From Mucilaginibacter sp. (GTDB lineage Bacteria; Bacteroidota; Bacteroidia; Sphingobacteriales; Sphingobacteriaceae), in contig NZ_JBDSZG010000024.1 in NCBI RefSeq assembly GCF_039925265.1, positions 15,626 to 79,625 on the forward strand: 64,000 nt of DNA. Reading direction: 5' to 3'. The notes below the pieces were generated by a model. That model worked only from the letters and a program-made list of their open reading frames with translations, was not told the DNA's origin and did not search any database. Shown in pieces: positions 34,769-62,311 of this stretch. The position numbers were made by a program, and so were the translations under genes. The first letter of the stretch is position 1. The number at the start of each line of letters is the position of its first letter.

Positions 34769-34796
34769 GCAACCATCAGCGGCTGCCAAGCGTATT
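34769..34796 (+). promoter_or_regulatory. Putative ECF sigma promoter (site 1)
   Basis: GCAACC-16 nt-CGTATT; one of seven matches. Confidence 0.75.
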
Positions 34797-34817
34797 TGGT
34801 GTAGATACCCGCGCCCC

Positions 34818-36491
34818 TTGAAACAAATTTTAAAAAGCATCTTCCTTATCCTCACTCCGCAGGAAAAAAACAAGCTGTTTAAGCTCATCGCTTTTGATGT
34901 GCTGATAGCTTTGCTGGATATTGCTTTCCTGGCGTCTTTGTTGGTTGTTATCAATTTTTATACGCAGGTATCCGGTGCAAACAAGCTTGCCTTTTTACCA
35001 CAATGGCTGGCCGATAACAAGTCGCTCAAATTGATCGGTTTGTTTTTGTTGCTGTTTGCCTGCAAGAATGCTTTAGGATTTTTTGGGCAAAGGTCGCAGC
35101 ATCATTTTTTCTACCGGGTGGCGTCGCGGTTGTCGGCACGGAATATTGGTAATTATTTACGCGGTGGGTATCAGCAGTTTGTGCATACCAATTCATCGGT
35201 ACACACCCGCCGTATCAGCAATCAGCCTATCGAGTTTAGTCACTACATTTTAACCAACTTTCAGCAGCTTGTATCGCAAACCTTGCTGATAATTTTTACC
35301 GTTGTTGCCATCCTGTTTTATCACCCTTCGCTATTTTTGATCATGCTTCTGTTGTTGCTGCCCCCGGTTGTGCTATTGGGGCTGTACACTCGTAAACGGC
35401 AGGCGGCGTTAAGGCATCAAACTAAAACAGCCAGCGCGAAAACCATCCAGCATCTGAACGAATCATTGTCCGGCTATGTGGAAAGCAACATGTATGATAA
35501 GGATGATTTTTTTAGCGACAGGTATTTAAACTACCAGCAGCAACTGAATAATACCATCGCCGCGCAACAAACCTGGCAAAGCCTGCCCGGCCGTTTAATG
35601 GAAGTTTTTGCGGTACTGGGCTTTTTAATATTGGTGGGCATTAGCAAGTACATCACCAACGCACCGGGCATTGGCATGTTAACCATTGGCATATTTATGG
35701 CCGCGGCTTACAAAGTAATACCGGGCATTGTTAAAATAATGAACAGCACCGGGCAAATGAAAACCTATGCCTTTATCCTGGAAGACCTGGTTGCCGATAA
35801 CGAAGTAAAACGTGCCGGGCCGGGCGAAAAAGTAAATACTATCCGGCAGGTTAAATTTGAAGGAATTAGTTTCGGTTACCAATCCCGACCGGTGTTGGAT
35901 GACCTGAACTTTGAAATAGCCCAGGGCGATATGATGGGTATCTCCGCAGATTCCGGCAAAGGCAAAACCACTATCATTAACTTATTGCTGGGATTTTTAA
36001 AATATGATAGCGGCTCTATTCACATAAATAATCGCGTTGCCGATACCGAAAGCTTTAATGCTTACCGTAAAAATATCTCTCTTGTAAAGCAGCAGCCCTT
36101 TCTTATTCACGATTCTATCCAAAATAATATTACGCTGAGCGATGATATTGCCGACCAGGCCCGGCTTGCGTATGCTGTGGAGTTTTGCGGATTGGATGAG
36201 TTTGTGGAAAAATACCCGGAAGGGTTCGATCATTTGATAACCGAGAACGGTAAGAACATCAGCGGGGGACAAAGGCAACGGCTGATGCTGGCAAGGGCGC
36301 TGTACCATGATTTTGACCTGCTGATACTGGATGAACCTTTTAGCGAAATGGACAGTAAGGGGGAGCAGGAAATCCTCGCGAAGCTAAACCAACTGGCCAA
36401 ACAGGGTAAAATGATCATCCTGATAACACATAATAAAGCAAGCCTTGCTTTTTGCAATAAAATAATTTTATTAGAGGGGGCATATGCCTGA
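34818..36491 (+). CDS. ABC exporter, fused permease/ATPase (MsbA/PglK/HepA-like)
   Basis: TM N-half, Walker A ADSGKGKT, ISGGQRQR, LILDEP, ITH; no C39 peptidase domain. Start placed at TTG 34818 because ATG 34761 lies upstream of the promoter motif. Confidence 0.88.
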   Translation: MKQILKSIFLILTPQEKNKLFKLIAFDVLIALLDIAFLASLLVVINFYTQVSGANKLAFLPQWLADNKSLKLIGLFLLLFACKNALGFFGQRSQHHFFYRVASRLSARNIGNYLRGGYQQFVHTNSSVHTRRISNQPIEFSHYILTNFQQLVSQTLLIIFTVVAILFYHPSLFLIMLLLLLPPVVLLGLYTRKRQAALRHQTKTASAKTIQHLNESLSGYVESNMYDKDDFFSDRYLNYQQQLNNTIAAQQTWQSLPGRLMEVFAVLGFLILVGISKYITNAPGIGMLTIGIFMAAAYKVIPGIVKIMNSTGQMKTYAFILEDLVADNEVKRAGPGEKVNTIRQVKFEGISFGYQSRPVLDDLNFEIAQGDMMGISADSGKGKTTIINLLLGFLKYDSGSIHINNRVADTESFNAYRKNISLVKQQPFLIHDSIQNNITLSDDIADQARLAYAVEFCGLDEFVEKYPEGFDHLITENGKNISGGQRQRLMLARALYHDFDLLILDEPFSEMDSKGEQEILAKLNQLAKQGKMIILITHNKASLAFCNKIILLEGAYA

Positions 36492-37539
36492 AACGCTGAT
36501 CATCCTCACGCCCGGTTTCCCTGCGGATGAAGCAGATACCACCTGCATTCCGCCACAGCAGGTTTTTGTTAAAGCACTAAAGGATAACTACCCTAAGCTG
36601 CGGATCATTATCCTGAGTTTTCAATATCCCTTCCAGGAGAAGGAATACCTATGGCATGGGATAAAGGTAATTGCCTTTGGCGGGCAAGGCAAAGGAGGGG
36701 CCAATAGAATGGTGACCTGGTTTAAAGTGTGGCAATGTTTACGGGCGATAAAGGAACGGCATAAACCCATCGGCATACTTAGTTTTTGGCTGGGCGAAGT
36801 TGCTTTTGTGGGTAGCCTTTTTGCGAAATGGAACAAGCTGAAGCATTATAGCTGGCTGCTTGGCCAGGACGCGAAAGCCGGTAACAAATACGCGCGCCGG
36901 ATAAAGCCCCAAAGCCCCGGCCTCATCGCCATTTCAGATTTTATTGTAACCCAGTACCAGCAAAATTATGGTATAAAGCCCGGGCAGGTGATCCCGGTGG
37001 GCGTTTCCCCGCAACCTTTTAAAAATGTTGGCGATGCGAGGGATATCGGCCTCCTGGCGGCCGGGTCGTTAATCCCTTTAAAGCGGTACCATTTGTTTGT
37101 GGAGTTGGTAAAAGAATTAAAAAAAGACCACCCCAATATCCGTGCTGTTCTTTGCGGCGCCGGCCCCGAAATGGAACGCCTGCGCGCTTTGGTAGCAGAA
37201 CTTGAATTGCAAGATAATTTAACAATAAAAGGAGAACTGCCTCATCAACAGGTGCTGGATCTGATGCAGCATGCAAAGGTGTTTGTGCACCCATCCGAAT
37301 ACGAAGGTTTCAGCACCGTTTGCCTGGAAGCGCTTGATGCAGGCGCCGGGGTGGTTAGCTTCATCAAAGCAATGAATGCGGATATCCCAAACTGGCACAT
37401 CGCCAACACACCTGAAGAAATGCACCGGATTGTTGGAGAATTGCTGAATGATGATACACGAAAGTACCAGCCAGCAGTGCCCTATTCTGTCAATGAAAGC
37501 GCAAAAACGATGATGGCTTTGTTTAATTACAGCGAATGA
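36484..37539 (+). CDS. Glycosyltransferase, GT4/GT-B
   Basis: GSLIPLKR, GELPH, HPSEYEGFSTVCLEAL. Confidence 0.88.
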   Translation: MPETLIILTPGFPADEADTTCIPPQQVFVKALKDNYPKLRIIILSFQYPFQEKEYLWHGIKVIAFGGQGKGGANRMVTWFKVWQCLRAIKERHKPIGILSFWLGEVAFVGSLFAKWNKLKHYSWLLGQDAKAGNKYARRIKPQSPGLIAISDFIVTQYQQNYGIKPGQVIPVGVSPQPFKNVGDARDIGLLAAGSLIPLKRYHLFVELVKELKKDHPNIRAVLCGAGPEMERLRALVAELELQDNLTIKGELPHQQVLDLMQHAKVFVHPSEYEGFSTVCLEALDAGAGVVSFIKAMNADIPNWHIANTPEEMHRIVGELLNDDTRKYQPAVPYSVNESAKTMMALFNYSE

Positions 37540-38630
37540 GCTATCTGCTCTATTTGCCGGGCGATGGCTTCGAAAGAGAGCGTTGTTTTAAAATACTCCA
37601 GCGAGCGTTTTCGTTTATCCCAAAGATCTATTTGCCTGGTTTTATTCAGGGCTTCCAGTAAAGCCTCCTCACTGCCGGGTGTGTAAAGAATGCCGCAATC
37701 GCCGTTATTGGTGATCATCCTGAACGAAAGTATATCTGTAACAACCGGCACGCACCCGCATGACATAGCCTCGCAAACCGAGGCCCCGCTTCCCTCATAA
37801 TGCGAACCGGAAATAATAAAATCGGCACTGTTAAACCAATATAAAAGTTCGTGATGAGGGACCTTGCCAACCAATACTACCGTACGTGAAAGCTGGGGGC
37901 TGCTTGACAGCAGCGCCTGAATAGTGTGCAGTAATTCATCGGTATGGTAGATCATGTAGAGCTTTGCGTTTGGCTCCTGGTGGGTAAATTTTAAAAATGC
38001 CTTAACCACATTCACAGGGTCTTTATTGGCGTTTAAACGGCCCACCCACAAAAATACAGGGTTACCCGTTATACCGGTTTTAAGTTTGGCTACCTCCCCG
38101 TTTACCGGGTAAAATACCGAAGATACCTCCATCGCCTCATGGATCTTAGCTGCTGAGGCTAAATTCCCGACAGCTACCCATTCTACTCCCATGGCATATG
38201 ACGCAAATACATAAGCATCAATATAGTTATCGGCTAAGCGCTGGAGCTGTTTTTTTAAGCCGGTTGCGGGTCGCTCAGCGTGGTTTTGCACCATTATTTT
38301 TACCCGCTTACCCAGTACAAGACGCAGCAACATCACCTGTAAGGGGAAATGAAGGCTTTGAATAACCACTACATCGGGCTGCAGGCTTTTAATAAACTGG
38401 TTTAACTTGCGGGGATAGTACCGCAAAGCGGCTGCCGGGTATCGTTTAAAGTGGTAGTCGACCCCGCCGCTAAAATGCCGGCCCTCATAATCTATTTGTT
38501 CTATACTGACTACTTCGTTGGTACGACTAAGCGCTCCCTGTATGCCGGCGTAGGCATTGATGCGTTTTAGCCAGGCATCGGGCTCGTGAAAGTTAGGGGT
38601 ATAAACGTAGCTTGCAAAAACAAATCTCAT
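37527..38630 (-). CDS. Glycosyltransferase, GT4/GT-B
   Basis: VGRLNANK, GKVPH, SHYEGSGASVCEAMSCG. Confidence 0.9.
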   Translation of the reverse strand: MRFVFASYVYTPNFHEPDAWLKRINAYAGIQGALSRTNEVVSIEQIDYEGRHFSGGVDYHFKRYPAAALRYYPRKLNQFIKSLQPDVVVIQSLHFPLQVMLLRLVLGKRVKIMVQNHAERPATGLKKQLQRLADNYIDAYVFASYAMGVEWVAVGNLASAAKIHEAMEVSSVFYPVNGEVAKLKTGITGNPVFLWVGRLNANKDPVNVVKAFLKFTHQEPNAKLYMIYHTDELLHTIQALLSSSPQLSRTVVLVGKVPHHELLYWFNSADFIISGSHYEGSGASVCEAMSCGCVPVVTDILSFRMITNNGDCGILYTPGSEEALLEALNKTRQIDLWDKRKRSLEYFKTTLSFEAIARQIEQIAHSL

Positions 38631-38642
38631 GAAGAGGGCGCG

Positions 38643-39611
38643 TTAAAAAATATCAATATCGGCAAAGGTAAAAGCGAGTTTATCTGCAGGGATGCCCGAG
38701 CCCATATCCTTAATGGCGATGGTAAAAGAGGGAATTGGCTGAGCATATTTTTGCAACATGGCGTGTAAGCGGCTTTTTGCACACACCTGGAACTGTAATT
38801 GCTGCAGCCCAAGGCGTTTGGTTAATTTAAGTAATTTTGCCACTACTTCATCCATATTGTCGCCAAGGCCGGTTATGTCGCCAACTATCAGTCCGTTTTT
38901 TATTTTGAACCATACCCGTGCTTGTCCAATTTGCACGGTGTGGGTGTAGGCATAACCTTTATAGGTTAAAAATTCTTCGTCACGATAAACCCCGCCATAA
39001 CCCTCGCCCAGTACAGAATTACTGATGCCCGAGGGTTGCTTTTCGGCTTTAATTACGAGGTTTAAATAAGCATCGTAAAGCGGTTTCGCCACATTGAATT
39101 TCGTGGCGAACTTTTCTAAAGGGATCGCCTTAACCGGGATAGTGAAACGCTCGAGACAACCCACCGCTTCCCAGCCAAGCTTGTTGATAAAGCCGGGCAA
39201 TGAGTTTTGATTAGGAAAGCCGAATATCAACCGGATACCTTCTGCACGACACAGGCTATAAGTTTGGTTAGCAAGCGCGACAAACAGTCCCTTATTGCGG
39301 TGCTCGGGGTGTGTCATGGTATCGGCAGATTGCCCGGCCAGCGTTAAGCGCCCACCATGATCCACAAAGCAGGGGAGTACCCCATAAAATGCTACAGGCA
39401 GGTCGGTTTGATCATAAGCAAGGTAGCCTACATAGGTTACTACCGTAAAGGCAGTGTTATATTTTTTCAGTAAGAAATCGCGGTTCAGCAGCTTATCGTA
39501 AACTGCCATGTGCAGGTAAACCAGGTCATTTAGTTTATCCACGCTAAACCGCTCTACACGGTAGCCACCCGCTATGGTTTTACCCTCAGTATGTGCCTCT
39601 AACGTTTGCAT
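38643..39611 (-). CDS. GNAT-family N-acyltransferase
   Basis: DTMTHPEHRNKGLF acyl-CoA-binding motif, FGFPNQNS...LGW. Confidence 0.82.
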   Translation of the reverse strand: MQTLEAHTEGKTIAGGYRVERFSVDKLNDLVYLHMAVYDKLLNRDFLLKKYNTAFTVVTYVGYLAYDQTDLPVAFYGVLPCFVDHGGRLTLAGQSADTMTHPEHRNKGLFVALANQTYSLCRAEGIRLIFGFPNQNSLPGFINKLGWEAVGCLERFTIPVKAIPLEKFATKFNVAKPLYDAYLNLVIKAEKQPSGISNSVLGEGYGGVYRDEEFLTYKGYAYTHTVQIGQARVWFKIKNGLIVGDITGLGDNMDEVVAKLLKLTKRLGLQQLQFQVCAKSRLHAMLQKYAQPIPSFTIAIKDMGSGIPADKLAFTFADIDIF

Positions 39612-40587
39612 ACATTTGGTTTGTGGTTGATATAAAAGGATTTATGGTGAGGCGTTCGCGCATCGCAGGCTCTGCTCCGTCCTCGGCATGATGATAATCG
39701 GTAGCTAACAATTGTGTATACCCACAGGCTTTAGCCGCGTTAACTACAGCCTGGTTATAACTGCCGTAGGGGAAGGCAATACTGTTCACGGCCTTGCCCG
39801 TTACACTTTCCAGGTATTGTTTGCTTTGTGCAAGCTCTTTTGCAGCTTCAGCAGCGGTTATTCCCGCGAGGTCGTTATGGTAATACCCATGCGAGCCAAT
39901 GGTTACATAAGGCGAGGCCGCCATTTGTTTAATTTGATCGGCAGTCATTTGCAACCAATAATCCTGGTGCTCCTTGTTTTTGCGGAAGGGACACAATTTA
40001 TCCAGCAGGCGCATTAGTTCCGCCTTATCGGAAAAGCCGAATCGTCGTAGTTTTACATTCAGGCTTATGCCTTCGGCATCAACGTAATGGCGATAGGTGT
40101 TTTTGTGATACGATCGATCTTTAAAAGTTAAAACCGCCGGGCCATATTTGCCCGCAATGCTCAGCATATCGTTCCATAAAATATCGTAGCCGGCGGCACT
40201 GGCGGCCGTCACAAAAAAAGTTGCAGGTACCCGGTATTTATGGAGCAGGGGTAGCGCGTAGGCGTAGTTATTTGCAAACCCGTCGTCAAAAGTGAGGCAG
40301 ATATTGAATTTTTCTTCAGAAAAACGCTGTAAGTAAAAGTCGTCCATCGAAACTAAATTGAAGTATCTTTTGTAATAACTAAGATGTCGCTCAAAAGTTT
40401 GCAGGGTAATAAAAAGGGTATTGAACTTGGTGGGGGCGTTTTGGCAGATCCCATGATAGGCTAATATGCGGCTACCCCGGGCACTTTTGTAATAGTTTTT
40501 ATCCACCCCCATAATATGAGAGATGTCGCCTTGTATGTAGCGTGCCCTGCGGCTGGTTTTGGTAATTATTTTCTCTAATACGCTCAT
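39586..40587 (-). CDS. Polysaccharide deacetylase (CE4/NodB-like)
   Basis: LTFDDG, ATFFV, IGSHGYYH, AFPYG. Confidence 0.88.
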   Translation of the reverse strand: MSVLEKIITKTSRRARYIQGDISHIMGVDKNYYKSARGSRILAYHGICQNAPTKFNTLFITLQTFERHLSYYKRYFNLVSMDDFYLQRFSEEKFNICLTFDDGFANNYAYALPLLHKYRVPATFFVTAASAAGYDILWNDMLSIAGKYGPAVLTFKDRSYHKNTYRHYVDAEGISLNVKLRRFGFSDKAELMRLLDKLCPFRKNKEHQDYWLQMTADQIKQMAASPYVTIGSHGYYHNDLAGITAAEAAKELAQSKQYLESVTGKAVNSIAFPYGSYNQAVVNAAKACGYTQLLATDYHHAEDGAEPAMRERLTINPFISTTNQMYANVRGTY

Positions 40588-40589
40588 AG

Positions 40590-41750
40590 TTAGGCGGCAG
40601 GTTCTGAGGGTATATAAACAGGAAACTGTATATCAGCCTGATACTGCTGTATCTGGTTCATCAGCTCAGGTAGATCCCCCTGCACATATTTAACACTCTT
40701 CCCGCTATACACTTTACTGAATTGATATAGTGGCATATCGCCCAATTGGTGATACAAGCTTTGGTCGAAAAGCCGGATGTTTCCCTTGCTCATCACCATT
40801 AAAATATCTTCAGGTTTAATGCCATAAAAGGCATCTAAACCCTTGTTGCCGGTATCTTTAACCAGCAGCAGGTCGGCATCAAACCCTTCGGCAATGCTGC
40901 CACAGTTTAGCTTCCAAACATTGGCCGCGTCACTTGTAAGAGAACGGAACAGCTCCTCATCGCTCAGCATTTGCGTTTCGCGGGCGAGGGAAATATGCTC
41001 CCAGATGTTCCAGTCGCTGGTGAGGGTGGAATCTGTGCCGAATAAAATGCGGGTGAACTTTTTTAAGTGGTTAACCGGCGCGGTGGCATTCAGTAAAAAA
41101 TAGTTCGACTGCGGGCACCACACCAGCGCCTTAAAATATCTCGCCTGCGCGGGGCTAAGCGCTACCCCATGAATGCCTATGAGTTTGCGATGCAATAAAT
41201 TCCAGCGGATAAGTTCGTCAATTTCGCTGTGTGCGGCGGGGTTGGTACCCTCGCCAACATGCATTACAACAGGTTGGTTTATCTTTAATGGGTTGTTCAG
41301 CCGTTTTTTCCATTGCTTTTCAAAAGCTACCGAATGCAGGTCCTGCTTGTTTTCTACCAGGCTGATCAGGGCATCATTCGGCCCATTCCGTTCGCCATGG
41401 TTTACTACTGTGGTAACGCCGCAAAGCAGGTTTTTATAAATGCCCCATTGCTCGCGCAGCGCAAGGGGGATCTTTAGCCCCGCGGCAATTTCATCCGCAT
41501 AGGTTTTATGGATATGTTCCCCCCATTCGGTATAGCTTTTATAAGTAAGGTTGCCTAATTGGGGGAAGAGATTAAAATCGAGATGGTCGTGCGAATTGAT
41601 CAGCCCGGGGAAGGCCCAGGCGTTGGAAAACATCACTTCGGATTGCCCCTTTTCTATCAGAGGCACAGTTGATAGCCGGGCAATTTTGCCTTCGCTTATG
41701 CGGATACTTACGTTTGTACCGTTAATGAGCTGCACATTATTTAGTATCAT
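40590..41750 (-). CDS. Metal-dependent amidohydrolase (nucleoside deaminase-like)
   Basis: PGLINSHDH (HxH), MHVGEG, IHGV, FGTDS, GSIAEGFDAD; start at ATG 41750. Confidence 0.85.
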   Translation of the reverse strand: MILNNVQLINGTNVSIRISEGKIARLSTVPLIEKGQSEVMFSNAWAFPGLINSHDHLDFNLFPQLGNLTYKSYTEWGEHIHKTYADEIAAGLKIPLALREQWGIYKNLLCGVTTVVNHGERNGPNDALISLVENKQDLHSVAFEKQWKKRLNNPLKINQPVVMHVGEGTNPAAHSEIDELIRWNLLHRKLIGIHGVALSPAQARYFKALVWCPQSNYFLLNATAPVNHLKKFTRILFGTDSTLTSDWNIWEHISLARETQMLSDEELFRSLTSDAANVWKLNCGSIAEGFDADLLLVKDTGNKGLDAFYGIKPEDILMVMSKGNIRLFDQSLYHQLGDMPLYQFSKVYSGKSVKYVQGDLPELMNQIQQYQADIQFPVYIPSEPAA

Positions 41751-42489
41751 TTCCCCTCCCAAAATGCATCCCGTAGATGATCGGGAAATCTTTATAGCTT
41801 TCGTACACATGCAGGGCTTTCTGCTTTTCGTAATAGTGCTTTACCGATTCATCTATCTTCATTTCCTCCTGGGCAATCAGCCGGAAGTTATGATTGAGCA
41901 AGATCTCTTTGATGGTACTGGTGAGGTGCACAAAGTTTTGCACCGCGATGAAAGCGTTATCGTGTTTAAAAGTGCGCTTGCCGCCGTATGCCAATGTGCT
42001 GGGATGAAAATCAGTTATCACAATGTCGCCGGTATTTTTTAGGATGCGGCACCAGGCCTTTAGCGCCTCCTCGATGTTTTTAATATGGGCAACGGTGAGG
42101 GTAGAAACAATGGTATCATAGCTTTTTGAGGGGATATCCTTAAACAGGTTATCGGTGATCTGGTAAGTTTGGGCCTCAGGAAACTTTTGCTCCAACCGGC
42201 GCAGCATGCCCGATGATACATCAAAGCCGGTAAGTTTCGCCGGGCGAAGGTTCAGTATTTTTTGCCAGTGCCTGCCTGTTCCACAGCCAATATCCGCCAC
42301 TTTTTTATTTTGGACAGGCAGGTTGGCCAGCAGTTTTGTAAACACGGCCTCGTCGAGGTCAAGCATGAGGTTATCCGGCTGCTCATCGTAGTTTTTCGAC
42401 CAGATATCATACGCCTCAACGGAATCTTTCTCCTTTATTGTCGAAGGAAAAAGATGCTGTTTTACATAGTTTTTAAGCGTTGCTATCAC
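41737..42489 (-). CDS. Class I SAM-dependent methyltransferase
   Basis: AYDIWSKNYD, VADIGCGTGR, GFDVSSGML. Confidence 0.88.
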   Translation of the reverse strand: MIATLKNYVKQHLFPSTIKEKDSVEAYDIWSKNYDEQPDNLMLDLDEAVFTKLLANLPVQNKKVADIGCGTGRHWQKILNLRPAKLTGFDVSSGMLRRLEQKFPEAQTYQITDNLFKDIPSKSYDTIVSTLTVAHIKNIEEALKAWCRILKNTGDIVITDFHPSTLAYGGKRTFKHDNAFIAVQNFVHLTSTIKEILLNHNFRLIAQEEMKIDESVKHYYEKQKALHVYESYKDFPIIYGMHFGRGNDTK

Positions 42490-42521: not shown

Positions 42522-42549
42522 ATTACGGTTACCTGCCTGCAAAGGTTGC
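42522..42549 (-). promoter_or_regulatory. Putative ECF sigma promoter (site 2)
   Basis: Minus strand GCAACC-16 nt-CGTAAT, facing GTG 42489. Confidence 0.75.
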
Positions 42550-42575: not shown

Positions 42576-42603
42576 GCAACGGGCAAGCCTGGCCCGGCGT
42601 ATT
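42576..42603 (+). promoter_or_regulatory. Putative ECF sigma promoter (site 3)
   Basis: GCAACG-16 nt-CGTATT, back-to-back with site 2. Confidence 0.7.
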
Positions 42604-42659: not shown

Positions 42660-42710
42660 CTCCCGGTTTAAACGAGGTGAGGGTAAAACCTCATCACCGG
42701 GAGATTTTTT
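42660..42710 (+). terminator. Terminator/attenuator-like hairpin in the radical SAM operon leader
   Basis: CTCCCGGT...GGTGAGG-GTAAAA-CCTCATC-ACCGGGAG followed by ATTTTTT. Confidence 0.5.
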
Positions 42711-44244: not shown

Positions 44245-44256
44245 TTTTTTTTGAAC

Positions 44257-46046: not shown

Positions 46047-46054
46047 GCAGAAAC

Positions 46055-49320: not shown

Positions 49321-49348
49321 ATGACGGGCCAAAACCCTGTTTGGTTGC
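49321..49348 (-). promoter_or_regulatory. Putative ECF sigma promoter (site 4)
   Basis: Minus strand GCAACC-16 nt-CGTCAT, facing GTG 49258. Confidence 0.75.
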
Positions 49349-55484: not shown

Positions 55485-55512
55485 ATTACGCTTTGGAATT
55501 TGGAATGGTTGC
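55485..55512 (-). promoter_or_regulatory. Putative ECF sigma promoter (site 5)
   Basis: Minus strand GCAACC-16 nt-CGTAAT, facing ATG 55390. Confidence 0.75.
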
Positions 55513-55868: not shown

Positions 55869-57293
55869 TTATCCCGAAAATGCTGCCGCTGCAGTTTTCC
55901 TATCGCTAAGCCTTAGTTGTTTGCTTAGGTAAAGTAGCACGATATACAGGAAGGTTCCCAGCAGCAATGCCAGCCAGCAATTAACCGCACATGATTTCAT
56001 GGCTACGCCGCTTGCCAGGGCGCAAGCCGTGCACAGCGCCAGGTTTTGCCAAATGGCATTTAATTGCTTAATACGGTTATGGCTCAAATAAAACACTGCC
56101 TGCACCACATAAGATGCCAGGAAGCCTGTGGCCGCACCCTCATTGCCAAAGTAGGGTATCAGCACCACATCCAGCCCGGCGTTTACCAAAAAGGTAATGA
56201 TGAAACCTTTCAATATCATCTTCATTTCGCCTTTGGCAAAAAAGATGGTCCACAAAAAATTATTAAGGTACAGGAAAGGGATGCAAAGCGATAGGATAAA
56301 AACAGTGCCGGCATTAACAGCGCCGTATTTGCCCGCAGTAATAGCATCCATTACCGGCGACCAGAGGATGTTGAGCGCCAGCCCGGTAAAAGCGGCAATG
56401 GCCATTTCGGCGCGTAAAAGGTTTTGAAGGCCAGCGATATCGGCGGTGCCTTGCTTAAACATTTTTGTAAATTTAGGTATCAGCAGCGGCGCAATGGCCA
56501 GCAGTGGCAGGGTACTCATTTCAAAAACCTTATAAGCAAAACTGTATTCGGCCAGTTTAACTGCCGATGCCATAAAACCGATAAATACCCAGTCGAACCG
56601 GGCTATGGCCGAGGTGAGGATGTTAACCCCCGTTTGCGGCAGTGCCTCGCGGAGCAGGGCGGTATATTTAGCCCGGTGCCATAAGATATTAAACAAAATT
56701 TTTGTGCCACGACTGAAAATGATCGCGGTGATCAGTAGCTCCAGCACATCTCCGGCTACAAAAATTATAACGGCATTTTGTAATGAAATGGCGTGTATAA
56801 TAGCCAGCATCAGCAAAGCCACGCTACGTATTAGGTTTGATACTATTAGCATAGTACCCAGCAGGCGGAAGCGTTCCAGCCCGCTGGCAGCCTGTTTAAA
56901 GGGGGTGGAAAAGTAGATCATCAGCTTGCCCGCGCCAACAAGTAAAAGCAAGGGATAAACGCCATTGGTTTGGCTGATGAATAAGCTGCCCAGCAATATC
57001 AACCCATAAAATAAAAAGCCGGTGAGCAGTACATGGAACAGGTAAAGCGAGAGCACTTCCCCTGCGTCTTCGCCCGAAGCTATTTTGCGGATGGATACCT
57101 GGTCGATACCCAGCGAGAGCAGGTTAAAGGCCATCATCAGGATAGCCAGCGCGAGGTTCAGCTGCCCGAAACTGTTTTTATCGAGCCCGGTAGAGAGCAG
57201 GTAAAAAATAACCAGTCCGGCCAGTTGATTAATAACCAGCTGCAGGGTATTTGCCGAAAGATTTTGAAATAGTTTGCTTTTCAAAACGATCAA
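55869..57293 (-). CDS. Wzx/MOP-family oligosaccharide flippase
   Basis: About 12-14 TM segments, SFGQLNLA, RFDWVFIG...AEYSFAYK, YFGNEGAA. Confidence 0.85.
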   Translation of the reverse strand: MIVLKSKLFQNLSANTLQLVINQLAGLVIFYLLSTGLDKNSFGQLNLALAILMMAFNLLSLGIDQVSIRKIASGEDAGEVLSLYLFHVLLTGFLFYGLILLGSLFISQTNGVYPLLLLVGAGKLMIYFSTPFKQAASGLERFRLLGTMLIVSNLIRSVALLMLAIIHAISLQNAVIIFVAGDVLELLITAIIFSRGTKILFNILWHRAKYTALLREALPQTGVNILTSAIARFDWVFIGFMASAVKLAEYSFAYKVFEMSTLPLLAIAPLLIPKFTKMFKQGTADIAGLQNLLRAEMAIAAFTGLALNILWSPVMDAITAGKYGAVNAGTVFILSLCIPFLYLNNFLWTIFFAKGEMKMILKGFIITFLVNAGLDVVLIPYFGNEGAATGFLASYVVQAVFYLSHNRIKQLNAIWQNLALCTACALASGVAMKSCAVNCWLALLLGTFLYIVLLYLSKQLRLSDRKTAAAAFSG

Positions 57294-58096
57294 TATTCAA
57301 CCACCAGTTTTTTGGGTGCCGGTAACTTACCCGAAGGTAGGTATTTGCCTGCTTCAAAAAGTTTTAAGTAATGATATTTAAGCCGGGTGTTTTTGTAAAG
57401 CATCAGCGCGATATCCAACCCTTCCAGTCCATCTAAAAAGCCTAACCGGATAAGGTAGCTGATGAGAAAGCAAAATACAGGCGAAAGGTAGAGCTTAAAA
57501 AAAGCGGCCTTTTTGCCGGCGCTTAAGTATTTGATGGCGCTTAGTCGAGCGTAATGAATCGCTTTTTTATCGCACTCTTTTATATTTTGTACCGAGTAAT
57601 GGTGCAGGTAGCCGCCTACCCTTTTTACAGTAGCGCCGGGCGGAAGCAGTAAAGTTTCGTGCACCTCCGTTTCCGACCATTTTACCCGTGTGCGGTTAAA
57701 AAGGCGGCGGTGGTGATCTCGGCCCCAGGTGCCGTATTTAATTAGCTTATCCCCAAAGTAAGATCGGAATTGGATATCGTACACCACATCAGGGTTATCA
57801 AATGTTAGGCAGTGCAGAGTGTTGATGAGCTGCACATCGGCTATCTCATCAGCATCGATGCTTAAGATCCAGTCGTGCCGGGCCAGCGCTATCCCCTTGT
57901 TTTTATTCGCGCCGTAGCCATCCCAGCTTTTGTGGTAAACGCGGCAGCCGTAAGCTTCGGCAATTTTCAGGGTATCATCGGTGCTGCCATTGTCTACCAC
58001 TACGATATCATCGCTGATAAAGCTTGCCATTTTAAGGCATCTGCCCAATATGGCCGCTTCGTTTTTGGTAATAATTACGATGGAAACCGGTATCAT
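57290..58096 (-). CDS. Glycosyltransferase, GT2 (WaaE/KdtX-like)
   Basis: VIITKNE, VDNGSTD, LSIDADE, VHE, LHHYS, GFLDGLEG. Confidence 0.88.
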   Translation of the reverse strand: MIPVSIVIITKNEAAILGRCLKMASFISDDIVVVDNGSTDDTLKIAEAYGCRVYHKSWDGYGANKNKGIALARHDWILSIDADEIADVQLINTLHCLTFDNPDVVYDIQFRSYFGDKLIKYGTWGRDHHRRLFNRTRVKWSETEVHETLLLPPGATVKRVGGYLHHYSVQNIKECDKKAIHYARLSAIKYLSAGKKAAFFKLYLSPVFCFLISYLIRLGFLDGLEGLDIALMLYKNTRLKYHYLKLFEAGKYLPSGKLPAPKKLVVEY

Positions 58097-58160: not shown

Positions 58161-58188
58161 ATATCGTTTGCAATGGGGCAGGGGTTGC
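58161..58188 (-). promoter_or_regulatory. Putative ECF sigma promoter (site 6)
   Basis: Minus strand GCAACC-16 nt-CGATAT, facing ATG 58096. Confidence 0.7.
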
Positions 58189-58296: not shown

Positions 58297-58324
58297 GCAA
58301 CCTTTAAACCTGCAATTACGTGAT
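58297..58324 (+). promoter_or_regulatory. Putative ECF sigma autoregulatory promoter (site 7)
   Basis: GCAACC-16 nt-CGTGAT, about 50 nt upstream of the sigma ATG 58372. Confidence 0.72.
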
Positions 58325-58371: not shown

Positions 58372-59013
58372 ATGGGCGACGAAGAGTTACATCAACTGAT
58401 ACGAGGCTGTGTAAAGCAGGACAGGAAATGTCAGAAAATGCTGTATAAGGCATTTTACGGCTTTTCTATGGGCATTTGCCTGCGCTATGCCAACAACCGG
58501 GATGAGGCTGCCGAAGTAATGAATCAGGGGTTTTATAAGGTTTATACGCATATCGAGCGGTTTGATATGACGCGGCCGTTTAAAGCATGGTTGGGCCGTA
58601 TTATGATGAATGTTTCTATCGATTACTATCGCGCCAACCTTAAAATGGCCTATACCGACGACCTGGATAAGGCCGAACATTTAACCGACGGCGAGCTGGT
58701 AGACCGCAACCTAAACTATGAGGACCTGCTGCGCATGGTGCAGCAATTGCCTCAGGCCTACCGTACGGTGTTCAACCTTTTCGCTATAGATGGGTACTCG
58801 CACGAGGAGATAGGAGATATGCTGAACATCAGCCCGGGGACATCAAAATCGAATTTGCACAAGGCCCGACAAAAATTAAAAACAATGATCTTAAAAGCAG
58901 ACGATGCTGCAAACAGCCAAAACTATAACCGGGGGATGGATTATAACCCCATAGTAGCGATGTGTGGCAGCGATATCAAAAACGCTTTTTTTAATAATGG
59001 TATCAGAAAATGA
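58372..59013 (+). CDS. ECF RNA polymerase sigma-70 factor
   Basis: Region 2 (EAAEVMNQGF...FKAWLGRI) and region 4 (LPQAYRTVF...YSHEEIG...GTSKSNLHKAR), plus a C-terminal tail of about 35 aa. Confidence 0.93.
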   Translation: MGDEELHQLIRGCVKQDRKCQKMLYKAFYGFSMGICLRYANNRDEAAEVMNQGFYKVYTHIERFDMTRPFKAWLGRIMMNVSIDYYRANLKMAYTDDLDKAEHLTDGELVDRNLNYEDLLRMVQQLPQAYRTVFNLFAIDGYSHEEIGDMLNISPGTSKSNLHKARQKLKTMILKADDAANSQNYNRGMDYNPIVAMCGSDIKNAFFNNGIRK

Positions 59014-60287
59014 AAGAGGGGGAGGAAAAAATAGATAGCATATTTAAAAAGCGCCTGGAGGACCCGGCGAACAACCTCGCTCACAACGAGGATGACTGGG
59101 ATGCCCTTGAACAAATGCTGGATAAAGGCAAAAAACGCCCCGTAATAGCATACTGGTTGCCTGTACTGAGTGGCATGGCGGCACTGTTGTTACTGTTTTT
59201 AGGCTGGTGGCTTTTTAAACCTCAGCAGGGCGCTGTTAAACCAAACCAACAAGTTGCAGTTAAAAAACGGGAGCCGCAAAGCGCAAACAGCGATACCAGC
59301 ATTAAAAACACACCACAGGCACCTGTAAGCGTGCCCATGAATAGCATAGCGGTTAACCCGCAAACAACCAATAAAAACCAGGGAGATATCTATTTGCCAA
59401 AAAGAAAACAGGCGGACGTAAAAGGAACGGCTGCCGCTGAAAATACAGGAACTACCATATTAGCTGCCAGTGGCATAACTACACCGCAGCAGAACAATAC
59501 GGTTGTAACACCGGTGCAAAAGGACACCGCACCACCAGTAAAAGCAAACATGATGGCCATGCAAAAAGACACCACGCCGACTGTAAAGACAATCGGCACA
59601 GCAAATGCCGGGCAGGCCGTAATAGCACAGATGGAACCGGCCAAAACAACCGAAAAGGTAAAAGTGAAGGCAGGCTCCTTTGGTGCTAATCGCCCGAGGT
59701 ATGCGCTGAGTGTAATTGCTTCATCAGATATTAACGGGGTTAACTCGTTCCAGCAAAGCAAGGTGGGCAGCAATTTTGGGGCAATGTTTTCGGTAAGCAT
59801 CAAAAAATGGACGATAACTACCGGGGCAACTTATTCTGTTAAGCCGTATGCAACCACGTTTGCAAATTACACCACGGCCTACCAGTTTAAGCAGGATCCA
59901 ACCAATGTTACCGCAGATTGCCGCATGTTGGATATTCCGCTGAATATTGGTTACCAGGTTTACCAGAAAGGTAAAAATAAGTTTTCGCTGGGTACGGGGC
60001 TGTCATCGTACTTTATGCTGCATGAAAATTACAAATATACATACAGTTCGGCATACCCTAACGGGCCGGCAAACTATACCGTTGCTAACCCGCAAAACTA
60101 TTTATTCAGCAACCTTAATTTAAACGCAACGTTCGAGCACCGGGTAAATTCAAAATTCAGTTTAAGTGTACAACCTTACCTGAAACTGCCGCTGAAGCCG
60201 GTGGGCTATAGCCAGGTAAACCTGCATACTGCGGGGGTAGCCGTTGGCTTCAACTGGAACATCAATTCATTCACCAAACCAAAGTAG
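59010..60287 (+). CDS. Putative anti-sigma factor with C-terminal outer-membrane beta-barrel
   Basis: ATGA overlap with sigma; short N-terminal cytoplasmic domain (DWDALEQMLD), one TM helix, P/T/A-rich linker, beta-strand-rich C-terminus (LDIPLNIGY, GFNW). Confidence 0.75.
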   Translation: MKEGEEKIDSIFKKRLEDPANNLAHNEDDWDALEQMLDKGKKRPVIAYWLPVLSGMAALLLLFLGWWLFKPQQGAVKPNQQVAVKKREPQSANSDTSIKNTPQAPVSVPMNSIAVNPQTTNKNQGDIYLPKRKQADVKGTAAAENTGTTILAASGITTPQQNNTVVTPVQKDTAPPVKANMMAMQKDTTPTVKTIGTANAGQAVIAQMEPAKTTEKVKVKAGSFGANRPRYALSVIASSDINGVNSFQQSKVGSNFGAMFSVSIKKWTITTGATYSVKPYATTFANYTTAYQFKQDPTNVTADCRMLDIPLNIGYQVYQKGKNKFSLGTGLSSYFMLHENYKYTYSSAYPNGPANYTVANPQNYLFSNLNLNATFEHRVNSKFSLSVQPYLKLPLKPVGYSQVNLHTAGVAVGFNWNINSFTKPK

Positions 60288-60288
60288 C

Positions 60289-60840
60289 ATGAAGTACATC
60301 TGTATTATTTTACTTGCCTGGTTAAGCATCAAAAACCAGGCAGGGCAGGATCTCTATGCCTGTAAAAACGCAAAGATCAGTTTATTTTCCTCGGCCCCGC
60401 TGGAGGATATACAAGCCTCGAGCAGCAGTGGCACATCGGTTTATAACCCTGCCACCGGCGACCTGGCCTTTAGTGTAGGCATCCGCTCGTTCCAGTTCCC
60501 AAAATCGCTGATGCAGGAGCATTTTAACGAGAACTATATGGAGAGCGATAAGTACCCCAAAGCCACCTTTAAAGGAAAGATAAAGGAACCGGTTGATGTA
60601 ACCAAAAACGGCAGCTACCCGGTAAACGTAACCGGCGAACTGAGCGTTCACGGTGTTACGCAAACCCGTACCATCCCCGGCACCGTAGTGGTGAACAATG
60701 GTACGGTAAGCATGACGTCGGAATTTATGGTGAAATGTGCCGACCATAAGATCGACATCCCCACGCTGGTATTCAAGAAGATTGCCGAGAGTATCAAAAT
60801 GAACGTATCGGCAACCTACACGGCAGTAAAAAGCAGCTGA
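60289..60840 (+). CDS. YceI-family protein
   Basis: Signal peptide, LMQEHFNENYMESDKYPKATFKG, GELSVHGVT, DHKIDIP. Confidence 0.9.
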   Translation: MKYICIILLAWLSIKNQAGQDLYACKNAKISLFSSAPLEDIQASSSSGTSVYNPATGDLAFSVGIRSFQFPKSLMQEHFNENYMESDKYPKATFKGKIKEPVDVTKNGSYPVNVTGELSVHGVTQTRTIPGTVVVNNGTVSMTSEFMVKCADHKIDIPTLVFKKIAESIKMNVSATYTAVKSS

Positions 60841-60860
60841 AACCCTATAACACATAAACA

Positions 60861-61805
60861 ATGAAGAAGCTAATATCCCTTGCAGCCTGCGCTGTAATTA
60901 GTACCGCCGTATGGGCGCAAACCACACCGGCCCAAAGCAAAACCGCAGCAGATTCGCTGCTGAACAGTATGGATAGCGGTACCAAGGCCGAACCCGTTAT
61001 CGCTACCTTTAAATCAACCCGGTTAATTTTGGGTGCCACTACCGAAACCGTTAAAAAGAATAACCTCAACTTTTTGGTGATCCACCGCTTCGGCGATATA
61101 GGCGGTTCGGAAGGCGGGGGTAAAACCCTCTTCGGCCTTGATAATTCCAGTGATATTTACATCGGCTTTGAGTACGGCCTTAGTGATAATCTGGATATCG
61201 ATTTTGGCCGCAGCAAATTTGCGCAGCAGGTAGATCTGGGGCTGAAGTACGCCATCATTCACCAAACATCAGACAACGCCACGCCATTTGCCGTAACCCT
61301 TTTGGGCAAGGCGGGCATAAAAGCCTACCATGCCGACCAGGGCGAGTTCCCAACCTTTACGGATAGATTTGCCTACGTGGCGCAGGCGATCATCGCCCGT
61401 AAGTTCTCAGCGAATTTTTCCCTGCAGTTAACGCCAACCTATGTGCGCGACAATTCACCCTTTCCGTTTTTGGCGGGGAATGAGCGCAGCTTTTTTGCCA
61501 TGGGTATAGCAGGCCGCTTAAAGGTGACCAAACGGATGGGCATCGTGGTAGATTACGCGCATCCCTTCTCTTCCTTCCGTAGCAACGCGACGGGCGATAA
61601 CGCCTTTTACGATCCGCTGGGTATAGGTATTGAGATAGAGACAGGCGGGCACGTGTTCACCATCGTGTTCAGCAATGCCAAGGCGATCTCCGAAACCAGC
61701 TACTTAAGCGCCAGCCAGAGCGATTGGGGCAAAGGGCAGTTTAGGTTAGGGTTCACCATTTCGAGGATGTTCAGCTTTAACAAAAAGGCCAAAAAAGCTT
61801 ATTAA
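60861..61805 (+). CDS. DUF5777-family beta-barrel protein
   Basis: FKSTRLI, IHRFG, IETGGHVF, GFTISRMF. Confidence 0.8.
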   Translation: MKKLISLAACAVISTAVWAQTTPAQSKTAADSLLNSMDSGTKAEPVIATFKSTRLILGATTETVKKNNLNFLVIHRFGDIGGSEGGGKTLFGLDNSSDIYIGFEYGLSDNLDIDFGRSKFAQQVDLGLKYAIIHQTSDNATPFAVTLLGKAGIKAYHADQGEFPTFTDRFAYVAQAIIARKFSANFSLQLTPTYVRDNSPFPFLAGNERSFFAMGIAGRLKVTKRMGIVVDYAHPFSSFRSNATGDNAFYDPLGIGIEIETGGHVFTIVFSNAKAISETSYLSASQSDWGKGQFRLGFTISRMFSFNKKAKKAY

Positions 61806-61825
61806 TCCTACTAAAATACAACACC

Positions 61826-62251
61826 ATGGAAAGACAACAATTTTTAGCGAAGCTGGGCATCGGCCTGGCGGCTGTTTGTACCGGATGCAGTTTAGTATCT
61901 TGCGGCAGCAACCCCAAAAACGAAGACCCCACGCCAACCGCCGATGGTAATATATTTACCACCAATTTGGATAGTGAATTGCTGAATGTGGGCGATGCCA
62001 AGGTATCCAACGGTGTAATTTTAGCCCGTATCGCGGCAGGCAATGCGGTCGGCTCGTTCTCCGCGGTGCAGGTGGCCTGTACACATGAAGGGACTTTCAT
62101 TAATTATAACCAGGCCGGGGGGATCTACATTTGCCCGCTGCATGGCAGCCGTTTCAGCAAAGAAGGCTTTGTACTGCAAGGGCCGGCAGCATCATCCCTC
62201 AAAAAATACAACGTAGTAATTACCGGCGCAAGCTTAAACGTGCGGGCATAA
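61826..62251 (+). CDS. Rieske (2Fe-2S) domain lipoprotein
   Basis: CTHEG and CPLHGSRF ligand boxes; Tat-like ERQQFL leader and LVSC lipobox. Confidence 0.88.
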   Translation: MERQQFLAKLGIGLAAVCTGCSLVSCGSNPKNEDPTPTADGNIFTTNLDSELLNVGDAKVSNGVILARIAAGNAVGSFSAVQVACTHEGTFINYNQAGGIYICPLHGSRFSKEGFVLQGPAASSLKKYNVVITGASLNVRA

Positions 62252-62277
62252 GATTGTTTAATTTTGATATGATAGGG

Positions 62278-62311
62278 GCGGCCTATTCCTGGTTAGGATG
62301 GGCCGTTTTTT
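62278..62311 (+). terminator. Intrinsic terminator closing the sigma operon
   Basis: GCGGCCTATTCCT-GGTT-AGGATGGGCCGT imperfect stem followed by a T run. Confidence 0.55.

Follow-up and report, generated by a model that had tools for sequence, protein, structure and literature searches.

Results

Gene content of the locus

Between 34.8 and 62.3 kb of the window, i.e. the whole stretch of 64,000 nucleotides of Mucilaginibacter sp. DNA that was analysed, seven tightly packed transcription units (TUs) are found. Their genes and associated features are the following.

34818..37539, plus strand: TU1, MsbA/PglK-like ABC exporter and GT4 glycosyltransferase (Pfam, NCBIfam)
37527..42489, minus strand: TU2, SAM methyltransferase, amidohydrolase, polysaccharide deacetylase, GNAT and GT4 (Pfam)
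42660..42710, plus strand: hairpin with U-run in the leader from P3 to the radical SAM (rSAM) start codon (folding z = -2.05)
42742..48336, plus strand: TU3, B12-binding rSAM, methyltransferase, rSAM-SPASM, B12-binding rSAM and methyltransferase (Pfam, NCBIfam)
48338..49258, minus strand: TU4, 306-aa protein with a weak nucleotidyltransferase (NTase)-fold match (Pfam, E = 2.5e-4)
49358..55390, minus strand: TU5, 551-aa polytopic membrane protein, GT2, GT4, GT4 (DUF1972) and a Wzy_C/O-antigen-ligase-like protein (Pfam)
55869..58096, minus strand: TU6, GT2 glycosyltransferase and Wzx-type flippase (Pfam)
58372..59013, plus strand: ECF sigma factor of 213 aa whose C-terminal tail, about 40 aa long, is conserved (Pfam, TIGR02937)
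59010..60287, plus strand: Dma-like anti-sigma candidate of 425 aa (AlphaFold2 model, Foldseek; weak PF13568 match)
60289..62251, plus strand: remainder of the sigma operon, YceI-like protein, DUF5777 membrane beta-barrel and small Rieske protein (Pfam)
62274..62310, plus strand: terminator-like hairpin closing the sigma operon

Two gene starts deserve comment. For the ABC exporter gene, TTG 34818 is a more likely start than ATG 34761, a codon that overlaps the promoter. For the first rSAM gene, ATG 42742 is more likely than 42652, as its orthologues align from residue 31. The genes of TU2 overlap or lie at most 12 nt apart. In TU3, all NCBIfam matches fall below the equivalog cut-offs, and the 306-aa protein of TU4 has no NCBIfam match. 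The hairpin in the rSAM leader recurs with a stem of at least 9 bp in 54 of 63 distinct orthologous rSAM leaders, compared to 17% of shuffles, with many compensatory variants; possibly it acts as an attenuator or stabiliser. A search of 34-63 kb against Rfam gave zero matches at E <= 1, hence the leader holds no known riboswitch.

Mucilaginibacter is known for exopolysaccharide production. Several features of a Wzx/Wzy locus are present, namely a flippase (PF01943, 55869-57293), two GT2 and five GT4-type genes. Candidates for Wzy are the product of 49358-50626, which matches PF04932 (Wzy_C, O-antigen ligase), and the family-less 551-aa polytopic protein, which has about 9-10 hydrophobic segments and a 210-aa loop. 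An initiating phosphoglycosyl transferase, Wzc and Wza were not found by Pfam among the cluster proteins and may be encoded elsewhere. Judged by its gene content, the product of the cluster would be a surface glycan or glycolipid.

Seven predicted ECF-type promoter sites

Each of the seven units is preceded on its coding strand by one site with the layout of an ECF promoter, as seen from the open reading frame map and Pfam. The predicted promoters are listed with the number of orthologous leaders in which they are retained.

34769..34796, plus strand: P1, GCAACC-N16-CGTATT, ABC exporter/GT4; exact in 14/35, within one mismatch in 25/35
42522..42549, minus strand: P2, GCAACC-N16-CGTAAT, methyltransferase unit; exact in 63/73, within one mismatch in 72/73
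42576..42603, plus strand: P3, GCAACG-N16-CGTATT, rSAM unit; exact in 46/75, within one mismatch in 74/75
49321..49348, minus strand: P4, GCAACC-N16-CGTCAT, NTase; exact in 26/26 and 41/44, within one mismatch in 44/44
55485..55512, minus strand: P5, GCAACC-N16-CGTAAT, 551-aa protein unit; exact in 33/60, within one mismatch in 60/60
58161..58188, minus strand: P6, GCAACC-N16-CGATAT, GT2/Wzx unit; exact in 54/72, within one mismatch in 72/72
58297..58324, plus strand: P7, GCAACCTTT-N13-CGTGAT, putative autoregulatory promoter of the sigma operon; 78/79 exact

The pattern GCAAC[C/G]-N16-CG[T/A]N[A/T]T matches exactly seven times in the 64-kb window (34769+, 42549-, 42576+, 49348-, 55512-, 58188- and 58297+), thereby reproducing the seven correctly oriented sites that a preliminary description had placed ahead of every unit from 34.8 to 62.3 kb. 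The spacer measures 16 nt in all seven, and the -10 end lies 19-138 nt from the start codon. P2 and P3 stand back to back with 26 nt between their -35 boxes, P4 is 10 nt past the stop codon of the upstream Wzy_C gene, and P7 lies 47 nt ahead of the sigma start codon with AAC in its -35 box and CGT in its -10 box.

In 100 dinucleotide-preserving shuffles the pattern occurred 0.40 times per 64 kb on average and three times at most; the seven-site pattern is real and far beyond chance. The preliminary description had estimated a 0.2% chance of a hit per 150-nt leader. That figure takes only the eight invariant bases into account; empirically the rate is below it, at about 0.04% per 123 positions. 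Allowing one mismatch added ten matches in the window, approximately the chance number (8.2 expected in total). All ten fall inside genes, and the leaders at 1-34 kb contain no site, either exact or with one mismatch, in agreement with the earlier reading by eye. Since the pattern was derived from the seven sites themselves, after inspecting them, independent proof had to come from orthologous Mucilaginibacter loci.

The Bacteroidota sigma-A -7 box TAnnTTTG is absent from the five promoter-bearing intergenic regions. It precedes seven genes at 1-34 kb as well as the DUF2157 gene (62368) just outside the regulon, which has its own TAnnTTTG box at 62259 and lacks the ECF motif. As the promoter leaders are without a housekeeping box, the cluster should be nearly silent in the absence of the sigma factor. 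A scan for E. coli-type sigma-70 promoters, which tells little in Bacteroidota, returned a chance number of matches.

Conservation in other Mucilaginibacter

The pattern was applied unchanged to 2.6 Mb of DNA from other Mucilaginibacter, comprising 80 loci taken from genomes and 80 from metagenomes. Retention in orthologous loci had been proposed as a check of the motif, and across the 160 loci it was kept ahead of the orthologous first genes and not ahead of internal genes, where it occurred at background level. In the first locus set, 197 of 206 exact matches lie ahead of first genes; the remaining nine correspond to the chance rate. The sigma leaders carry the motif in 78 of 79 orthologues, all exact, and 74 of 75 distinct sigma-promoter sites read CGTGAT. 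Information in these is confined to AG-GCAACC-TTT and CGTGAT-G. The letters of the spacer are unconserved and drift among orthologues; its length is constant at 16. The forms of the -10 box are specific for the transcription unit, the CGTCAT form being confined to P4, and the NTase leaders keep the site with at most one mismatch in 70 of 70 orthologues. P1 is less well kept than the other promoters. In one locus (L076) the ABC-GT4 pair is fused behind GT2-Wzx and lacks a separate site, be it exact or with one mismatch. In two others (L022, L027) the rSAM block is relocated, and the back-to-back pair P2/P3 travelled along. A position weight matrix built from the orthologous sigma promoters alone placed five of the seven window sites among its top six; it was over-fitted to CGTGAT and was set aside.

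The sigma factor and its candidate anti-sigma factor

The sigma factor consists of regions 2 and 4 only (PF04542, PF08281, PF07638). It scores 86.7 bits against TIGR02937 (cut-off 42.9) and 71.6 bits against NCBIfam sigma_PG0214, under the cut-off of 130. Across 80 loci its identity ranges from 67 to 99%, and the region 4.2 helix is invariant. A homologue search returned close Mucilaginibacter orthologues only and gave no indication of an ECF group.

The ATG of the downstream gene overlaps the sigma stop codon (ATGA). In the AlphaFold2 model of its 425-aa product, two N-terminal helices (residues 5-16 and 26-42) are followed by a single membrane helix (44-68), a linker of about 155 aa (residues 70-224) that is disordered (pLDDT below 50) and rich in Q, T, P and N, and a barrel (230-417) with a block-mean pLDDT of about 76-93. 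In the N-terminus D9, F12, D29, W30 and E34 are invariant in 40 homologues. For the barrel, Foldseek finds NspA (target-normalised TM 0.79) and the OmpA membrane domain (0.62-0.64), and also Ail, OmpX and OmpW. PF13568 (OMP_b-brl_2) matches the candidate with E = 0.002 and is precomputed in several homologues. This modelled layout makes the protein a candidate dual membrane-spanning (Dma/Reo-type) anti-sigma factor.

Expression data

For the window, one metatranscriptome was found, in which a lone 158-nt contig falls within the sigma gene. Along the M. kameinonensis locus, coverage by four rhizosphere metatranscriptomes rises at about 9967-10024, close to the predicted start, and two contigs begin earlier, at 9917 and 9857, upstream of the predicted sigma promoter. 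Metatranscriptome contigs thus place expression of a relative's sigma gene in rhizospheres. Neither the Mucilaginibacter RB-TnSeq paper nor the tundra genome paper mentions the sigma factor or the cluster.

Origin of the cluster

The preliminary description had called the locus an island. We reject horizontal acquisition as an island: the cluster keeps its synteny throughout the genus, beside genes for alternative complex III and cytochrome oxidase, and a locus kept genus-wide next to core respiratory genes is not a recent acquisition. Its G+C content is only about 3 points apart from that of the adjoining respiratory genes. In Pedobacter and more distant Bacteroidota the sigma/anti-sigma pair is found only with YceI and DUF5777, with a motif of the same kind ahead. 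This linkage is seen in Pedobacter, Prolixibacteraceae and other loci; loci of the Pedobacter type have the same motif, and two distant ones have GCAGCA-N15/16-CGTAT. Given that the pair elsewhere is accompanied by YceI/DUF5777 alone, the glycan cluster looks like a Mucilaginibacter-specific addition to the regulon. YceI-DUF5777 appear to be the ancestral targets, to which the glycan cluster was added in Mucilaginibacter.

Discussion

The reading we favour, with a probability of roughly 0.8, is that the seven sites are true ECF promoters (GCAACC, 16-nt spacer, CGTnAT) read by the sigma factor encoded at 58372-59013, and that they form a regulon held in check by an anti-sigma factor. An autoregulated ECF regulon had already been proposed in the preliminary description, and all its expectations at sequence level are borne out: a 213-aa sigma factor of regions 2 and 4, the motif in its own leader, and sites at first genes only. 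The type of the anti-sigma candidate and the apparent role of YceI/DUF5777 as ancestral targets had escaped that description.

That the regularity arose by chance or was over-fitted by eye would be a concern, since the pattern was composed after the sites had been seen. None of 100 shuffles reached seven matches, however, and the finding of the unchanged pattern ahead of the same genes across 2.6 Mb of orthologous DNA refutes this explanation, to which we give next to no weight. It is also improbable that the bipartite motif serves as the operator of some DNA-binding regulator, or as another cis element, instead of as a promoter. Two pairs of sites do stand back to back, as divergent operators can, but the motif is asymmetric and always directed at the downstream gene within 19-138 nt of its start codon; moreover, its layout of AAC in -35 and CGT in -10 at a fixed spacing is that of ECF promoters, the sigma gene itself has the motif ahead of it in 78 of 79 loci, and the leaders offer no alternative housekeeping promoter box.

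Somewhat more weight, yet still little, goes to the view that the sites are ECF promoters which another sigma factor, e.g. a close paralogue, reads mainly or additionally. In some Mucilaginibacter metagenome-assembled genomes (MAGs) a paralogous sigma factor adjoins a sigma-54 two-component system. Two loci (L077, L079; from the same MAGs as L064 and L059) encode a 69%-identical sigma factor with a Dma-like partner; the leader there likewise reads GCAACCTTT-N13-CGTGAT, and the region 4.2 helix is identical. With a second pair of the same promoter and recognition helix, more than one sigma factor could read the sites in these MAGs. Against this, the paralogue was found in two MAGs only, whereas the orthologous sigma factor adjoins the cluster and has the divergent promoter region in common with it in 72 of 79 loci. 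We therefore retain the sigma factor at 58372 as the predicted binding partner of all seven sites; very probably, as far as sequence can tell, it switches the 28-kb glycan/rSAM cluster on as one unit.

The following mechanism is proposed. At rest, the sigma factor would be tethered to the inner membrane through the N-terminal ~45 residues of the 425-aa protein co-translated with it, a protein predicted to have a cytoplasmic N-terminus, an inner-membrane helix, a disordered linker of about 155 aa across the periplasm and a small outer-membrane beta-barrel. The expected trigger is a disturbed outer membrane or cell surface, upon which, by analogy with Dma1/Reo, the anti-sigma factor would be degraded by proteolysis and the sigma factor released. 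Free sigma factor would then transcribe its own operon (sigma, anti-sigma, YceI, DUF5777, Rieske) as feedback, and six further units with about 20 genes, by which a surface glycan or glycolipid may be made, modified and exported. The modifying steps would be methylation, deacetylation, acylation and those of two B12-rSAM enzymes and one SPASM-rSAM enzyme; export and assembly would involve Wzx, the ABC exporter, and the Wzy-like and ligase-like proteins.

In AlgU(AlgT)/MucA of Pseudomonas alginate synthesis and in RpoE/RseA, a membrane anti-sigma factor holds an envelope-stress ECF sigma factor, with GAAC/CGT-like promoters and autoregulation. The present locus would share with them an envelope-stress ECF sigma factor that is held by a membrane anti-sigma factor, is autoregulated and acts on exopolysaccharide or envelope genes through promoters of this kind. 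There, the anti-sigma factor is confined to the inner membrane (RseA/MucA class I), signalling proceeds via DegS/AlgW and RseP, and a large regulon is scattered; the anti-sigma candidate described here would itself extend to the outer membrane, and the target genes are grouped next to the sigma gene. ECF240-type sigma factors associated with polysaccharide utilisation loci act with a FecR-like anti-sigma factor and a TonB-dependent transducer/SusC, and control glycan breakdown. They share with our system the Bacteroidota ECF sigma factor, the adjacent carbohydrate-related cluster and, presumably, the outer-membrane signal, but here neither FecR nor SusC is present, the anti-sigma candidate has its own barrel, and the cluster is biosynthetic.

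Anti-sigma factors of the Dma/Reo type were described only in 2024, with outputs of a handful of genes in gut Bacteroides. Das1/Dma1 of Bacteroides thetaiotaomicron and EcfO/Reo of B. fragilis and Phocaeicola vulgatus consist of an ECF21 sigma factor and an anti-sigma factor of the dual membrane-spanning type (PMC10927553, PMC13088901, PMC13114119). Our candidate shares with Dma1/Reo the order of the genes, sigma first, and, as predicted, the layout of a short N-terminus for binding the sigma factor, one inner-membrane helix, a long disordered linker and a small OMP_b-brl_2-type barrel at the C-terminus for the outer membrane (PMC10927553, PMC13114119); restriction of the family to Bacteroidota and an apparently autoregulated sigma operon are likewise common to both. 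This likeness to Dma1 is one of architecture; for Dma1 itself, binding of the sigma factor by the N-terminus and the spanning of both membranes were examined by pull-down and cell fractionation (PMC10927553). Regulons known for Dma-type systems are small, with NigD lipoproteins and BT_1287 as members, are linked to stress and vesicle production and contain no glycan genes; the Dma papers state no promoter motif for ECF21/EcfO. In contrast, about 25 genes in seven units are predicted here, mostly for glycan/rSAM biosynthesis, with YceI, DUF5777 and Rieske as operon partners; unlike in the Dma1/EcfO regulon, Pfam found no NigD domain in the 27 proteins scanned at 34.7-63.3 kb. In common with Todor et al. 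2020 (PMC7776599), the sigma factor's own promoter defines the motif, and nearby motif-bearing genes make up a small regulon; theirs is a general pipeline for ECF sigma factors that act as local regulators, ours concerns one locus.

The locus provides a clean promoter consensus (GCAACC, 16-nt spacer, CGTnAT) and a complete predicted regulon that is testable in the cultured M. gilvus, M. pedocola and M. gossypiicola. Deletion of one gene could switch on a silent, unusual glycan/rSAM cluster. Control of neighbouring genes by an ECF sigma factor with autoregulation is a textbook principle, so that the value lies in the specific system and not in a new concept. Evolutionarily, the regulon seems to have grown from YceI/DUF5777 alone to a whole glycan pathway. 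That an ancient Bacteroidota module of sigma factor, outer-membrane-spanning anti-sigma factor, YceI and DUF5777 was co-opted in Mucilaginibacter as the sole transcriptional driver of a pathway of about 20 genes for an rSAM-modified surface glycan is a tentative proposal, to which we give slightly less than even odds. If true, Dma-type systems would thereby gain their first promoter consensus and their first regulon that is both large and fully defined, and damage sensed directly at the outer membrane would lead to de novo remodelling of the cell surface.

Motif sites and transcription units

Exact matches to the pattern GCAAC[C/G]-N16-CG[T/A]N[A/T]T number seven in the 64-kb window, compared with a mean of 0.40 and a maximum of 3 in dinucleotide-preserving shuffles. 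The seven sites of the preliminary description were all recovered at their positions and on their strands, and the window holds no further exact match. When one mismatch is allowed, ten more matches appear, which is approximately the number expected by chance, and all ten are intragenic. The region 1-34 kb, in which no site had been seen by eye, indeed has no leader with a match, even at one mismatch. The gene content that had been proposed for the cluster agrees with the ORF listing and with Pfam/NCBIfam scans.

Sites (P1-P7) and the transcription units behind them (TU1-TU7); annotation by ORF listing and Pfam/NCBIfam
34769, +, P1, TU1: ABC exporter, GT4
42549, -, P2, TU2: methyltransferase, amidohydrolase, polysaccharide deacetylase, GNAT, GT4
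42576, +, P3, TU3: B12-rSAM, methyltransferase, rSAM-SPASM, B12-rSAM, methyltransferase
49348, -, P4, TU4: nucleotidyltransferase-fold protein (NTase), weak match
55512, -, P5, TU5: 551-aa polytopic membrane protein, GT2, two GT4, Wzy_C/ligase-like protein
58188, -, P6, TU6: GT2, Wzx flippase
58297, +, P7, TU7: ECF sigma, 425-aa protein, YceI, DUF5777, Rieske

Within TU1-TU7 the genes overlap or are separated by at most about 20 nt. Each unit is faced by one upstream site, with 19-138 nt between the end of the -10 box and the start codon, and TU7 is closed by a terminator-like hairpin (62274-62310). Two longest-ORF starts are probably wrong. For the ABC exporter the most likely start is TTG 34818, because ATG 34761 lies upstream of promoter P1; for the first rSAM gene it is ATG 42742 rather than 42652, since orthologue alignments begin at residue 31.

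Promoter or operator

Sites shared by several operons could be promoters or operators. We argue for promoters, because the motif is asymmetric and always faces the downstream gene, because a -35 AAC and a -10 CGT correspond to the established general layout of ECF promoters (Todor et al. 2020, PMC7776599), and because the motif is also present ahead of the sigma gene itself. The distribution of the Bacteroidota housekeeping -7 box, TAnnTTTG, argues in the same direction. This box occurs 65 times in the window. It stands ahead of seven first genes in the 1-34 kb region, including that of the alternative complex III operon, and ahead of DUF2157, just past the terminator of the sigma operon, and is found in 0/5 promoter-bearing intergenic regions of the cluster. 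Since it is missing from these leaders, the cluster seems to depend on ECF-type promoters alone.

Conservation in other Mucilaginibacter loci

The pattern had been written after the sites were seen and conservation is therefore the decisive test. Two sets of loci were fetched, 80 around sigma orthologues (67-99% identity) from species-representative genomes and another 80, from metagenomes, around first-rSAM-gene orthologues. Window proteins were placed on both sets by tblastn and the unchanged pattern was sought in the 450 nt upstream of every orthologue. The closest relatives by sigma identity are a MAG (99%) and M. gilvus F01003 (97%). Gene order is NTase - Wzy_C - GT4 - GT4 - GT2 - 551-aa protein - Wzx - GT2 <> sigma - 425-aa protein - YceI - DUF5777 (- Rieske) throughout the genus. 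Retention in orthologous loci, named beforehand as a check, was borne out, as sites are kept ahead of the orthologous first genes.

Motif matches in leaders of orthologous first genes (exact; at most one mismatch)
Sigma (TU7): 78/79; 78/79
GT2 (TU6): 54/72; 72/72
551-aa protein (TU5): 33/60; 60/60
NTase (TU4): 26/26 and 41/44; 26/26 and 44/44
Methyltransferase (TU2): 63/73; 72/73
First rSAM (TU3): 46/75; 74/75
ABC (TU1): 14/35; 25/35

Upstream of most internal genes (Wzy_C, Wzx, the 425-aa gene, GT4s, GNAT, deacetylase, amidohydrolase, SPASM and others) exact matches are essentially absent, and the best matches there have 2-3 mismatches, i.e. background. The exception is the second B12-rSAM gene, for which 24/59 orthologues show a one-mismatch match within the upstream coding sequence; this match is absent in the window itself. 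Among the exact matches in the first set, 197/206 lie ahead of first genes, the other nine occurring at chance rate or at contig ends. Away from the cluster, exact sites in about 2.6 Mb of fetched DNA have approximately chance frequency.

Information is restricted to (C)AG-GCAACC and CGTnAT, and the letters of the spacer drift while its length is fixed at 16. Per-unit logos of the orthologous loci reveal promoter-specific non-consensus bases at -10 positions 3-6 that are retained genus-wide: CGTGAT for sigma, CGTCAT for the NTase, CGTAAT/CGTAAC for TU5 and CGATAT/CGGTAT/CGTGAT for TU6. Bases just after the -35 box are also retained per promoter (TTT for sigma, AAA for the NTase). That orthologous sites each keep their own -10 form suggests that relative promoter strengths are tuned and under selection. 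Two rearrangements follow the operon logic. Where the ABC-GT4 pair is fused behind GT2-Wzx (locus L076), its own site is absent, exact or with one mismatch; where the rSAM block is relocated downstream of the sigma operon (loci L022 and L027), the back-to-back promoter pair has moved along.

Sigma factor and candidate anti-sigma factor

Apart from regions 2 and 4, the sigma factor (213 aa) has only a conserved tail of about 40 aa. In the 16 aligned orthologues and paralogues the region 4.2 helix, GTSKSNLHKARQKLK, does not vary, in agreement with the invariant GCAACC. The tail past region 4 (58885-59010), with conserved Y185, I194, A196, F206, N208 and G210, is retained in orthologues and in a paralogue.

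The gene of the 425-aa protein starts inside the sigma stop codon (ATGA). Neither Pfam nor NCBIfam matches the protein at standard thresholds. Its C-terminus hits OMP_b-brl_2 weakly (E = 0.002), and its homologues are named outer-membrane beta-barrel proteins, several with PF13568. In the sequence, 45 N-terminal residues are followed by a single hydrophobic helix and then by a linker enriched in Q, T, P and N. An AlphaFold2 model built with 40 homologues places helices at residues 5-42 and a membrane helix at 44-68; in it, residues 70-224 are disordered and 230-417 form a confidently predicted barrel, which resembles NspA (target-normalised TM 0.79), the OmpA membrane domain, Ail, OmpX and OmpW. 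The Bacteroides anti-sigma factor Dma1 binds the ECF21 sigma Das1 through its first 40 residues, and its barrel resides in the outer membrane (PMC10927553; PMC13114119); Reo, of the same dual membrane-spanning type, is thought to sense outer-membrane stress. The 45-aa N-terminus, membrane helix, linker and barrel of the 425-aa protein match the Dma layout, with its sigma-binding N-terminus of about 40 residues, and the protein is therefore of Dma type by architecture, with sigma binding and a two-membrane topology as predicted properties.

Two MAGs (loci L077 and L079, ~9928-12000) carry, besides the cluster-linked copy, a second sigma (69% identical) with a Dma-like partner, next to MacB-type ABC genes and the genes of a histidine kinase and a sigma-54-dependent response regulator, which form a two-component system. 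Because this paralogue shares the autoregulatory leader motif and the recognition helix, cross-reading of sites is possible.

In metatranscriptome contigs of relatives the sigma gene is the best-covered part of the locus, contig depth being a poor measure. At the M. kameinonensis locus (L011), where the start is predicted near 9953, coverage rises at ~9967-10024; two contigs set in further upstream, before the promoter. Past the candidate anti-sigma gene of this locus (13557-13680), many metatranscriptome contigs with unrelated flanks stack on ~40-120 nt, which points to a small, strongly expressed and widely conserved element, e.g. a tRNA or small RNA. This element is absent from the window.

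Wider distribution and history of the regulon

A profile of the 425-aa family matches 6749 representative clusters at E <= 1e-3, with named members from Pedobacter and a Prolixibacteraceae MAG. Five distant loci were fetched (regions L162 9215-9400, L166 7206-7438, L167 7150-7330, L164 6487-6735 and L168 4420-4670). The sigma/Dma-like pair adjoins YceI and DUF5777 in all five, together with a small protein of 118-180 aa and often also with Lipoprotein_15, and a glycan or rSAM cluster near the pair is found in 0/5. In the three Pedobacter-type loci the intergenic region carries the motif, as GCAACC-N16-CGTA, in two divergent copies; in L162, GCAACC-N16-CGTAAT faces the YceI-DUF5777 operon and GCAACCTTT-N13-CGTATA faces sigma. 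The operon of the two most distant Bacteroidota loci lies behind GCAGCA-N15/16-CGTAT, the same layout with one base changed. On the simplest reading, the ancestral regulon would have comprised the sigma pair and YceI/DUF5777, and in Mucilaginibacter the adjacent biosynthetic cluster would later have been given six further promoters.

The left half of the window (16034-31929) encodes alternative complex III including ActD, cytochromes c, COX15/CtaA and cytochrome oxidase subunit III; another ECF sigma was not found there. These are core respiratory genes and the glycan cluster is thus embedded in the core chromosome.

Additional cis elements and cluster product

The 138-nt leader between P3 and the probable rSAM start contains a strong hairpin with a U-run behind it (42660-42710, +). 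Orthologous leaders (loci L082-L161) have a G+C-rich stem of 9-17 bp at the same place with many compensatory variants, present in 54/63 distinct leaders versus 17% of shuffles; a T-rich tail follows in only 17/63. No Rfam family matches the hairpin, which may act as an attenuator or stabilise the mRNA.

At 55664-55798 the palindrome CGTTCC-N3-GGAACG occurs three times, with no copy expected by chance, alongside a fourth hairpin (55736-55750). They fill the unusually long gap of 479 nt between the Wzx and 551-aa genes, upstream of P5; in relatives this gap measures ~120-340 nt. The palindrome has no copies elsewhere in the window. These elements could be REP-like repeats, terminators insulating TU6 from TU5, or operator sites.

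What the cluster makes is uncertain, since the Pfam/NCBIfam scans reveal no initiating phosphoglycosyl transferase and no Wza/Wzc among the cluster proteins and the rSAM enzymes of TU3 match models at superfamily level only.

Significance

An autoregulated ECF sigma controlling neighbouring operons is of a well-known kind, and pipelines already predict such regulons in bulk. Known Dma-type regulons comprise NigD-type genes only, and in the literature searched we found no description of the Mucilaginibacter regulon or cluster. The proposed regulon is solidly supported at the sequence level. It is of value mainly as a tractable system for learning which functions are under Dma-type control in environmental Bacteroidota.
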